Of a stretch of DNA of 64,000 nt, positions 15,595 to 32,738 are shown piece after piece. A program made the translations under genes and the position numbers. Numbering within the stretch: position 1 is the first letter of the stretch; each line of letters starts with the position of its first letter. Under the pieces are notes generated by a model. That model worked only from the letters and a program-made list of their open reading frames with translations, was not told the origin of the DNA and ran no database searches. The stretch spans positions 34,561-98,560 of the forward strand of contig CAVOIK010000011.1 of assembly GCA_963695895.1 (NCBI GenBank). The letters are read 5' to 3'. Source of the stretch: an uncultured delta proteobacterium (GTDB taxonomy: Bacteria; Desulfobacterota; BSN033; UBA1163).

Positions 15595-15609
15595 CTTGAT
15601 TTCCTGTCC

Positions 15610-15715
15610 GTCTCCTTTCCAAACACGGGAGGTGTGGCCGTTTCCAACCACGCCCTGACGGCCATTTCCCATATCTGGATGATTGTCAGACTTAGGCAAA
15701 TGGCTCGGAGATCAT
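15610..15715 (-). promoter_or_regulatory. Moco (molybdenum cofactor) riboswitch aptamer
   Basis: The minus-strand RNA is cuCCGAGCC...cAGGGCG-[hairpin]-CCUCCCGUguuUGGAAAGGag. From memory this matches the E. coli moaA leader (cAGGGCG...GCCUCCCGUaucUGGAAAGG). It sits directly upstream of the Moco biosynthesis genes. Confidence 0.75.
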
Positions 15716-15795
15716 ATAAAATAATAATTCATCTCAACCCAAAAATCAATTAATAAAAGGGCACTTAAGCCCTCTTTCCCTAGCAGGGATTAGGG

Positions 15796-30721: not shown

Positions 30722-31465
30722 GTGAAACGGTTAAACGATAGGGGCCTGCAAAGCTTGCGGCCGGTGAAGATCACACGCCATTACATGAAGCATGCCGAGG
30801 GATCGGTGCTCATTGAGATGGGAGACACGAAGGTGATCTGCTCGGCCAGTATCGAAGAGAGGGTCCCTCCCTTTTTGCGAAATACGGGAAAAGGGTGGGT
30901 GACAGCGGAATACTCCATGCTGCCGCGGTCCACACATACTCGAACCTCTCGCGACGCGATGACCGGGCGTGGGAATGGTCGCGCCTTTGAGATCCAAAGG
31001 CTGATTGGTCGGTCACTCCGATCCGTCACGGATCTCAGTGCTCTTGGAGAGAGGACAATTTGGATCGACTGCGACGTCGTTCAGGCCGATGGGGGTACGC
31101 GGACCGCTTCCATCACAGGAGCCTACGTGGCACTTGTCGATGCCTTTCGGAAGTTGGTGAAAGATGGAGTCATCGAGCAGGTTCCGGTCATGGATAGTGT
31201 GGCTGCCGTGAGTGTGGGGAAAGTGGGCGGACACATTCTCTTGGATTTGAACTATGAAGAAGACTCAAAGGCCCAGGTGGATATGAATGTAGTGATGACG
31301 GGGAGTGGAAAATTTGTCGAGGTTCAAGGAACAGCGGAAGAATCCGCCTTCACAAGACAGGAGCTCGATGAGCTGACAAGAGTTGCCCAGAAAGGAATCA
31401 GAAAGCTGATAAGAATTCAGAGAAAAGGCACTGGAGGGAAAAGGATAGATAAGAAGATACGGAGA
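30722..31465 (+). CDS. rph: Ribonuclease PH (reads through in frame into the RdgB-like region)
   Basis: [32 protein letters not shown]...[23 protein letters not shown]. No stop codon occurs before the RdgB homology begins. Confidence 0.88.
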
Positions 31466-32055
31466 GACATTCTCATCGCAACTCGAAACAAAGGAAAGCT
31501 TCGAGAATTTCGAGGGGCGCTGAGGGGCCTGGGATTTCAGGTACGTTCATTGATCGATTACCCGGATGCTCCGGGGTCAAGGAGGACGGGAAGAGCTTCT
31601 CTGAGAATGCCCTTAAGAAAGCTCGTTTCTACTCAGGATTCTTCAAGACGTTGACCATCGCCGATGATTCTGGGTTGGAAGTTGATGCGCTCAACGGACG
31701 ACCTGGAATCTACTCGGCCAGGTATGCTGGTAAGGGAGCCACGGATCGTAAGAACAAACAAAGACTCCTTGAGGAGATGAAAGGGATTCCGGCATCAAAG
31801 AGGGGCGCTCAGTTTGTTTGTTCCCTGGCTGTTGTTTCCGCTGAGGGGAAGGAAGCCGGTGTTGAAGGGATGTGCAGAGGTCGAATTGGGTTCAAGGAAG
31901 TGGGAAAGAAGGGGTTTGGATACGATGCGCTTTTTGTTCTCCCTCGATTTGGGAAGACCATGGCTCAGCTTGGGCTTGCGGAGAAGGATAGAATCAGTCA
32001 CAGAGGGAAGGCCCTCAGGAAAATGCGGAAAGTCATAAAGGACTTCAAGAGTTAG
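31466..32055 (+). CDS. rdgB: dITP/XTP pyrophosphatase RdgB-like region, indel in a G4 run near 31575
   Basis: [14 protein letters not shown]..., then after the frame correction [51 protein letters not shown] found no independent start codon. Confidence 0.8.
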
Positions 32056-32115
32056 CGGTTTGTCTGCGATTGTCTTTGATCTGAGAATGTGTTAATTTCT
32101 TAAGTTGTTAACCGT

Positions 32116-32160
32116 CGGGGCGTAGCCAGGCAGTGAAGCGCGCGTGCCTTGGGGTTCCGG
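32116..32160 (+). pseudogene. Degenerate copy of the 5' half of tRNA-Pro (unit A)
   Basis: cggggcgtagccaggcagtgaagcgcgcgtgccttgggg compared with the intact tRNA-Pro 5' half. Confidence 0.6.
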
Positions 32161-32305
32161 TACATGAAGGAATCGAGCGTTCTTGGCCCCCGAGACGGGA
32201 GCCGTACGGCGGGTTCAAACAATAAGAGAGAGCTCTGTCGAGTTTTGAAAAGCGAGCGTTGTACGAGTTAGACTTTTTTGAATTGAGGCAGTTTTGAAAT
32301 CAAGT

Positions 32306-32352
32306 CGGGGCGTAGCGCAGCCTGGTTTAGCGCGCCTGCCTTGGGGCAGGAG
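32306..32352 (+). pseudogene. Near-identical copy of the 5' two-thirds of tRNA-Pro (unit B), with 1 nt missing from the anticodon loop and no T-arm or acceptor 3' strand
   Basis: cggggcgtagcgcagcctggtttagcgcgcctgccttggggcaggagg is identical to 32513-32560 except for the loop deletion. Confidence 0.75.
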
Positions 32353-32512
32353 GGTGGCGTCGCGACGAATAAGGAGCGACTCTTGGCACGCCGCCGAGTG
32401 GTGAGCCGGCCGGACCGGCGTTCAAATAAGGAGGAACTCTTGCCACCCCGAGAGGTGAGGGGCCGGAGGCGTTCAACGATAAAGGCACTGGCACTTCGCA
32501 GACGATCAAGGT

Positions 32513-32591
32513 CGGGGCGTAGCGCAGCCTGGTTTAGCGCGCCTGCCTTGGGAGCAGGAGGTCGGCAGTTCAAATCTGCTCGCCCCGACCA
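32513..32591 (+). tRNA. tRNA-Pro (anticodon TGG), CCA encoded
   Basis: Manual cloverleaf: acceptor cggggcg/cgccccg, anticodon stem cctgc/gcagg, loop cttggga, T-loop ttcaaat. Confidence 0.85.
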
Positions 32592-32661
32592 TCCTTAAAG
32601 TGGCGAGAGCTGATCAGACGGACCTTGGTTTTAGACTTTGCACTTGAACGATTTTGACATT

Positions 32662-32738
<77 letters not shown>

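Follow-up and report, generated by a model that had tools for sequence, protein, structure and literature searches.

Partial tRNA-Pro copies and a family-specific two-hairpin repeat at the tRNA-Pro locus of uncultured Syntrophales bacteria

The tRNA-Pro locus of an uncultured delta proteobacterium raises the question of why a tRNA gene should be preceded by incomplete copies of its own 5' part. The copies, together with a hairpin-forming motif that follows each of them, are stacked at positions 32116-32512 of a 64,000-nucleotide (nt) stretch of DNA from this organism (GenBank assembly GCA_963695895.1, contig CAVOIK010000011.1, positions 34,561 to 98,560 of the forward strand). The whole stretch is referred to here as the window, and coordinates given without further label are window positions. 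The stack is bounded by an rdgB-like gene (Ham1 domain, end 32055) and a cluster of five tRNA genes in the order Pro(UGG), Arg, His, Arg and Lys, as identified by ARAGORN and the Rfam tRNA model. The first gene of the cluster is the intact tRNA-Pro(UGG) (32513-32591; 64.2 bits with the Rfam tRNA model), which encodes its CCA end, and all features of the stack lie on the same, forward strand. The reading favored here, with a probability of roughly 0.58, is that the stack consists of decaying relics of tandem duplication or recombination at a recombination-prone tRNA-Pro locus. The motif within it is a 67-nt two-hairpin element. It is an undescribed family of small structured bacterial repeat, a known general kind, and its link to tRNA-Pro fragments is unusual and conserved.

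Both partial copies proposed in the original prediction, which was made from the sequence of the window, are confirmed. Unit B (32306-32353) corresponds to tRNA-Pro positions 1-48 minus one base. Positions 32304-32345 are an exact 42-nt copy of 32511-32552, which comprises two leader bases and tRNA-Pro positions 1-40. One anticodon-loop base is then absent (CTTGGG versus CTTGGGA) and the match resumes with GCAGGAGG, so the unit spans tRNA positions 1-48. It contains the acceptor 5' strand, the D arm, an anticodon arm with a 6-nt loop, and AGG. An extra T in the D loop, specific to the window, is common to unit B and the live tRNA-Pro. Unit A (32116-32160; repeat families D3 and D4, alignment A4) is older and decayed; it shares GTCGGGGCGTAGC exactly and AGCGCGCGTGCCTTGGGG at 94%. 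ARAGORN and the Rfam tRNA model recover the five known tRNA genes alone and call nothing within 32116-32512, even at E values up to 10, and a search of all Rfam over 31950-32700 returned nothing but the real tRNAs. In both units the 3' strands of the T stem and of the acceptor stem, which a functional tRNA gene would have, are missing.

The two units are related over their entire length. In an alignment of 32106-32303 with 32296-32510, unit A and the motif after it are collinear with unit B and the motifs after it, and the start-to-start spacings in the stack are 190 and 207 nt. The stack is two tandem units of ~190-207 nt followed by the live tRNA-Pro, and unit A with its following motif is an older copy of unit B and everything that follows unit B. 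Decayed tandem duplication had been among the explanations first offered for the locus, and this full-length alignment, together with the duplication of the 5' leader in relatives, supports it.

The motif after each partial copy is not a local derivative of the tRNA but a dispersed element of the whole family, something that the sequence of the window alone could not show. Searching the window's own assembly with 32100-32512 yielded 72-nt matches at 82-89% identity on six other contigs, and relatives gave up to 17 matches per genome at 85-93% identity. The 67-nt element is composed of two adjacent hairpins bounded by GAGG and CCGGA. Its core reads GAGG-GUGGC-GUCGC-GACGAAUAAGGA-GCGAC-UCUU-GCCAC (hairpin 1) followed by GCCGCC-GAGNNGGUGA-GGCGGC-CGGA (hairpin 2). 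The hairpin originally drawn for the motif, with a CCGAGA loop and ccc/ggg and cacc/ggtg stems, is out of register with it; the homologous hairpin is GCCGCC-GAGNNGGUGA-GGCGGC.

A threefold sub-repeat had also been described. Three copies do exist, but the unit boundaries had been misplaced, and the covariance model of the element, model R1, recognizes one full copy and one truncated copy while the third is too decayed to score. The full-length copy, termed copy R2, lies at 32350-32414 (81.6 bits, E 3e-16). The truncated match covers 32416-32467 (13.5 bits, E 0.38) and corresponds to copy R3 (32425-32467), which runs from AATAAGGAG onward (repeat family D2, 74% identity, 57-nt offset) and has hairpin 2 shrunk to CCCC/GGGG. 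The strongly decayed copy R1 after unit A (32166-32204) is not matched by the model even at E = 10 and is recognizable only when unit A is aligned with the unit B element (alignment A4). Each copy is followed by a remnant of the tRNA. In unit A this is TACGGCGGGTTCAAAC (32205-32220, alignment A4), a T-stem 5' strand and T loop. The equivalent piece after copy R2 is CCGGCGTTCAAAT (32415-32427), which matches CGGCAGTTCAAAT of tRNA-Pro, and a second T-loop relic, GGCGTTCAAC, follows copy R3 (32468-32477, repeat family D5). The T-loop resemblance noticed earlier is therefore genuine: GGCGTTCAAAT is the kept T-stem 5' strand and T loop of tRNA-Pro, and it is present in every such unit of relatives.

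The fold of the element is supported across the family. In a seed alignment of 17 hand-picked copies, assembled before the model, 96.7% of cells are paired and 5 pairs have changed on both sides. RNAalifold independently returns the same fold, plus a C-G pair that closes the GAAUAA hexaloop. Among the copies collected with model R1 (93 matches, 83 distinct), 98.4% of cells are paired and 11 of the 16 pairs have changed on both sides, a result that no shuffle out of 500 equals; this alignment is fitted to the covariance model, so that the seed alignment gives the more cautious figures. Loop 2 (GAGNNGGUGA) is constant while its stem covaries. Some variant copies have the closing pair of loop 1 flipped from C-G to G-C, or Watson-Crick pairs at the flanking G-A/A-G positions. 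Among the variants AAGGAG becomes AACGAG or AAGUCA, with a closing pair and tandem G-A pairs kept. Because these variants change AAGGAG and yet keep pairing, the conserved AAGGAG looks structural. Rfam 15 has no match over the window element at E values up to 10, none in 11 related loci at E up to 0.1, and none in 8 further loci at the gathering score.

These helix-preserving compensatory changes are the mark of a structured RNA under selection, and the element family is clearly under selection for its fold, which may act as RNA or as single-stranded DNA. G-U pairs outnumber A-C mismatches across the element by 14 to 6, an excess that is weak and is favored by the model used to collect the copies. 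In three cases (L060 6293-6520, L066 345-560, and L015), a structured module of ~100 nt is nested between hairpins 1 and 2. Its long stem has 11 bp (GCCUGCGUGCC/GGCGUGCAGGC) with two G-U pairs by eye, and is flanked by repeated CACGCC.

The fold support, with conserved loops and covarying stems, is an argument for the first rival explanation, in which the copy at the tRNA-Pro locus is a resident, selected gene for a structured small RNA that is co-transcribed with tRNA-Pro. The tRNA fragment, which is the 5' part in the window and the T arm plus CCA end in most relatives, would then be a handle for processing or stabilization. Copies on mobile carriers elsewhere would be secondary spread, and the window units would be leader-borne versions. 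The G-U pairs of the nested stem and, only weakly, those of the element would point the same way. This explanation is possible but unlikely.

The state of the window copies speaks against it. In copy R2, 2 of the 16 pairs are broken by non-standard pairings, and the minimum-energy fold is not the consensus; the consensus element sequence folds into the consensus structure at an ensemble frequency of 68%. Fold z-scores are -1.2 for copy R1 and +0.74 for copy R3. The covarying stem had been taken as a hint of selection on RNA structure. That idea holds for the element family as a whole, but such selection is not visible in the copies of the window, with their broken pairs and a consensus fold that is not adopted.

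As judged by model R1, the element is limited to one uncultured Syntrophales family, the family of the window. It occurs in 32 of 55 genomes of this family, with 0-43 copies per genome and 8 matches in the window's own genome, and was not found in ~290 genomes of other families of the phylum. No copy is detectable in the other 23 family genomes, which is not what a resident small-RNA gene would suggest. In an exact-pattern scan of 185,579 species genomes, matches are confined to metagenome-assembled genomes that, with one exception, are labeled Syntrophaceae, Syntrophales, Thermodesulfobacteriota or delta proteobacterium and come from soil, peat and lakes. The exception, L036, is labeled uncultured Alphaproteobacteria (MFD10007.bin.2.2) and has four tandem element copies inside a carrier. 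A delta-proteobacterial genome rich in copies was assembled from the sample that also yielded L036, which therefore represents either mis-binning or transfer.

That the stack could be a chance resemblance or an assembly artefact is conceivable, since the window's genome is a 74%-complete metagenome-assembled genome in which repeats may be collapsed or chimeric. The 42-nt exact repeat and the model match at E 3e-16 argue against this, as does the presence of the same architecture in independent assemblies from soils, peat and lakes, and the explanation is highly improbable.

[quoted passage not shown] The carriers are 125-250 nt long, consist of hairpin modules, and have ends CAGnnTGCTGAAAAA ... 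TTTTTCAGCAnnCTG that form ~16-nt terminal inverted repeats; examples in G000 are C16:20265-20414, C6:69472-69621 and C9:20571-20721. The window's genome has ~30 carriers, of which ~7 hold the element. Small, non-coding, multicopy and ended by inverted repeats, the carrier has the features of a MITE. The element itself has no terminal inverted repeats of its own and does not qualify as one. The same carrier is found both with and without the element, which always follows GAGG. The flanks of the carriers show no consistent, readable target-site duplication. A search of the window's genome for a parent insertion sequence found none, as matching ends 0.7-4 kb apart enclose ordinary genes, and the abundance of Y1 transposases does not follow element copy number. 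The carrier also contains an internal GGCGTAC...GTACGCC hairpin, and its right end often supplies or abuts the stop codon (CTA, which is TAG on the other strand) of a convergent gene.

Tandem arrays of the element, with a period of 57-62 nt, are found in L015, L036, L040 and L052. Intergenic copies can precede one and the same gene in more than one genome: L015 and L040 have a PAS-domain sensor after the element, and L060 and L092 an AAA ATPase. In L056/L101 (G044), the element abuts the 5' end of a tRNA-Leu with an overlap of a few bases (GGCCGGGGTGGCG). Orientation relative to the downstream gene is random, with 40 copies on the same strand and 40 on the opposite strand, and many copies lie between convergent genes. 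This lack of orientation bias is a further point against a small-RNA gene. The element also occurs without any carrier, notably within tRNA-Pro fragments.

At the tRNA-Pro locus of relatives, these fragments come in two types. The 5'-type unit has the layout seen in the window: the 5' part of the tRNA, GAGG, the element, GGAC, CGGCCGTTCAAAT, a spacer of 50-90 nt, and the intact tRNA-Pro. It is present in G016, G046, G053, L072, L075 and L079, across at least five genera, with spacers and leaders that are partly homologous. The piece equivalent to TACGGCGGGTTCAAAC comes after the element in all 5'-type units of relatives, and all of them break directly after GTTCAAAT in the T loop, the same point at which the CCGGCGTTCAAAT relic of the window stops. 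The 5' leader of tRNA-Pro is duplicated together with the tRNA part. This distribution over genera, the partial homology of the spacers and the duplication of the leader mark the 5'-type unit as old. Its elements are also the most damaged: 4 of 8 contain mismatches, compared to 7 of 51 carrier-borne copies, and the higher frequency of mismatches in this class than in others speaks against a small RNA kept by selection. The anticodon arms are scrambled in the 5'-type units of L051, L079 and G016.

The 3'-type unit lies downstream of the intact tRNA-Pro, beyond a spacer. A hairpin resembling an anticodon arm comes first, followed by GAGG, the element and GGAC, and then by the T arm, the acceptor 3' strand and CCA. 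These units begin in the anticodon stem-loop, extend to the CCA end, and are sometimes tandem, as with the three 143-nt units of G013. When metagenomes were scanned for the junction of GCAGGAGG and the element, 74 instances were returned, of which ~56 are 3'-type and ~9 are 5'-type; none of the 74 combines a 5' half with a complete 3' end. The presence of the 5' part had been considered odd, as integration at tRNA genes usually duplicates the 3' part; that argument is weakened, since the usual 3' fragments predominate at this locus in relatives. A full-length tRNA-Pro in which the element would form a giant variable arm was not found by pattern search in the 55 family genomes or among the 74 metagenomic junctions, and this counts against the small-RNA explanation as well.

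Several features of the locus in relatives recall mobile elements that integrate at tRNA genes. In G016, tRNA-Pro is separated from a 3'-type unit by a 6-kb island that carries AbiEi/AbiEii and HicA genes. In L051, a toxin-antitoxin islet terminates with 20 nt that repeat the 3' end of the tRNA, and in L047, L135 and L155, Phage_integrase fragments lie ~355 nt beyond the 3'-type unit. The 3' fragments, the G016 island, the L051 islet and the integrase fragments make the locus a recombination hotspot, and the earlier suggestion of recombination scars at this tRNA is supported to that extent. In many 3'-type units (the L046 type: L048, L072, L081, L092 and L100), the T loop is interrupted by an insert of ~85 nt with two hairpins, the right part of which matches DNA beside the tRNA 3'-end repeat that closes the L051 islet. 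The insert is probably the collapsed remnant of an integrated islet, judging from this match.

A second rival explanation builds on these features. The partial copies would be attachment-site remnants of tyrosine-integrase elements that target tRNA-Pro, the two-hairpin element would belong to the end of such an island, and the 5'-type unit would be what stayed behind after an incoming element had either displaced the 5' side or disrupted a pseudo-tRNA at its T loop. The uniform break of the 5'-type units is as expected, and the 3'-type units, which run from the anticodon stem-loop to the CCA end, resemble classic attR repeats. Attachment-site repeats of this kind are indeed present at tRNA-Pro in G016, L051 and L047. 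In the window, by contrast, it is the 5' part that is repeated, there is no island or integrase, and only 50-90 nt separate the units from the gene. The leader is duplicated with the tRNA part, which points to tandem duplication, and an integrase of this kind is found at only 4 of ~60 loci with enough flank. Compensatory changes in hairpins would not be expected of arms bound by protein as double-stranded DNA. The element also has no match in a viral contig collection, which disfavors both an island end and a phage origin. Overall, integration scars are an improbable source of the window stack.

Relatives also supply reasons to doubt that the stack and its counterparts are only relics, and these, like the clear selection on the fold of the family, weigh against the favored explanation. 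In 7 of the 10 genomes with a single model R1 copy, that copy sits at tRNA-Pro, a count drawn from metagenome-assembled genomes, which tend to lose repeats. Syntenic 3'-type copies are intact across genera and differ by paired changes: GTGGC/GCCAC, GTGCC/GGCAC or GTGAC/GTCAC in hairpin 1, and GCCGCC, GCCCGC or GCCACC, each with a matching partner, in the second hairpin. Such compensatory differences among syntenic copies are what a resident functional RNA would show. The 3'-type unit has a sharp left edge of conservation at GCCGA, another feature in keeping with a gene. The 5'-type copies in L075 and L083 are structurally intact. Moreover, tRNA positions 1-26 are perfectly kept in every 5'-type unit, which could reflect selection rather than gene conversion. 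Conserved, structurally intact and varying by compensatory changes, the 3'-type units leave room for a small RNA linked to the tRNA, of the kind described for the E. coli tyrT operon.

The tyrT operon reportedly contains 178-bp repeats associated with a small RNA termed rtT. Both there and here, tandem non-coding repeats lie beside a tRNA gene, each includes a fragment of that tRNA, and the repeats are co-transcribed with it (probably so in the window, from the position of a putative promoter described below). The 3'-type arrays of relatives, such as that of G013, have a very similar layout. The window units differ in that their tRNA fragment is the 5' part and their place is upstream of the gene, and in that they surround a two-hairpin element that covaries and is dispersed on its own. 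Neither a sequence match nor an Rfam match links the two systems.

In its boldest form, the small-RNA idea holds that the two-hairpin element is a new small RNA with structure, and that its home gene lies next to tRNA-Pro and is joined to fragments of that tRNA. This form is the more doubtful one. If it were true, the tRNA piece would bring processing of the tRNA type as well as a stable end, and would so make a natural tRNA scaffold in the manner of rtT, and the tandem G-A motifs of both hairpins would form the docking site of some protein. The MITE-borne copies and arrays would again be secondary spread, and the window units weakened, leader-borne versions.

In the favored explanation, that of decaying relics, the 5'-type unit would have been born by tandem duplication or recombination at tRNA-Pro in an ancestor of the Syntrophales family. 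The unit of ~200 nt comprises the tRNA-Pro leader, positions 1-48, the 67-nt element exactly at the site of the variable loop, and the T-stem 5' strand with the T loop, at which it breaks off. The inserted element is a member of the family-specific structured repeat, which spreads mainly on MITE-like carriers and in tandem arrays. We infer that gene conversion from the neighboring tRNA-Pro holds the tRNA-like 5' part to the sequence of the live gene, because the first 26-40 tRNA positions track the live gene in each lineage: the extra T of the window is one case, and the L083 unit and its own tRNA gene have a common C-to-A change. The anticodon arm and the inserted element would meanwhile drift.

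The stack is probably transcribed as a leader, because it is located between the probable promoter of the operon and tRNA-Pro. The candidate native promoter (TTGTCT, 17 nt, TGT-TAATTT; 32070-32098, forward strand) lies upstream of unit A and was recognized by aligning, by eye, the DNA directly 5' of intact tRNA-Pro in L047 and L075 (TTGTCT-17-TGTTAAATA). The promoter scan did not flag it. The scan flagged only a weaker site 30 nt 5' of unit B (TTGAAA-18-TAGACT; 32245-32274, forward strand), which is a consensus match alone (9/12). In the decaying-relic explanation, the stack would be transcribed only as a long 5' leader, removed by RNase P and discarded, and would have no function of its own.

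Other roles for the element were considered and were rejected or lost support. A small protein is suggested by AAGGAG followed after 6 nt by TTG and by repeat periods that are multiples of 3, but frame-breaking indels and paired non-synonymous changes that keep the helix rule it out. A sponge for CsrA of the CsrB/RsmZ type does not fit, as CsrA (PF02599) is encoded in 9 of 55 family genomes and is missing from most of the element-bearing ones, among them the copy-rich G066, G020 and G012 and the window's genome. The notion that the two loops act as extended Shine-Dalgarno mimics is weakened, given that the AACGAG and AAGUCA variants keep pairing. A riboswitch or other 5' untranslated region regulator would call for a constant position and orientation, neither of which is seen. 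A few copies do lie between the upstream intergenic region and a gene start, where the promoter-like DNA has a 19-nt spacer or a weak -10 and is unflagged by the scan. Finally, an acceptor-like helix closing the 3'-type unit is not supported, as RNAalifold yields only 2-3 invariant pairs for it.

Integrated islands are said to fall into sublocation classes within tRNA genes and to be flanked by direct repeats of tRNA 3' ends. The family resembles this picture in that 3' fragments beginning in the anticodon arm or T loop lie beside tRNA-Pro, with toxin-antitoxin islets and integrase remnants alongside in relatives. The window differs, with 5' fragments and neither island nor integrase, and the fragments here are interrupted by a structured element at the variable-loop position.

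Small modular repeats are familiar in bacteria and include BOX of Streptococcus pneumoniae, REP/BIME, Correia and ERIC. A MITE that encloses a minisatellite has been described in Porphyromonas gingivalis (PMC4596501). Like these, the element is a short non-coding hairpin module with many intergenic copies, which varies in tandem number as an internal module of carriers with inverted-repeat ends and shows no orientation bias. Unlike them, it is a new sequence family limited to one Syntrophales family, its internal module is also found carrier-free, notably in tRNA-Pro fragments, and no parent transposase was found for its carrier. There is also a likeness to the tRNA-derived short interspersed elements of eukaryotes and to tRNA-scaffolded RNAs, which couple a tRNA-like portion with a structured portion unrelated to it and exist in multiple copies. 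Here, the dispersed copies have no tRNA part, the chimera is restricted to the tRNA-Pro locus and never has a complete cloverleaf, and there is no sign of retroposition.

Two further observations concern the rest of the window. Adjacent to the stack, at 30722-32055, no stop codon separates an RNase PH open reading frame (310 amino acids) from the ~35 initial residues of a Ham1/RdgB domain, and the remainder of rdgB (profile positions 62-185) is in a different frame, from 31651. This is either a frameshifted or fused rph-rdgB junction or an assembly error. A molybdenum cofactor riboswitch is present at 15596-15722 on the reverse strand (79 bits).

The odd 5' tRNA fragments are thereby clarified: they would be decaying duplicates at a recombination-prone tRNA gene rather than tRNAs of a novel type. 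Of greater interest is the by-product. The 67-nt element, with very clear covariation, belongs to one uncultured Syntrophales family. In many species of this family it sits within tRNA-Pro fragments at the place of the variable loop; in others it has multiplied on MITE-like carriers. It offers itself as a candidate for a new motif family, of RNA or of single-stranded DNA, and is a traceable case of a small structured module that moves between a tRNA locus, mobile carriers and the intergenic regions 5' of genes. If the tRNA-linked copies were expressed as stable RNAs, they would be a second, independent tRNA-operon by-product of the rtT type.

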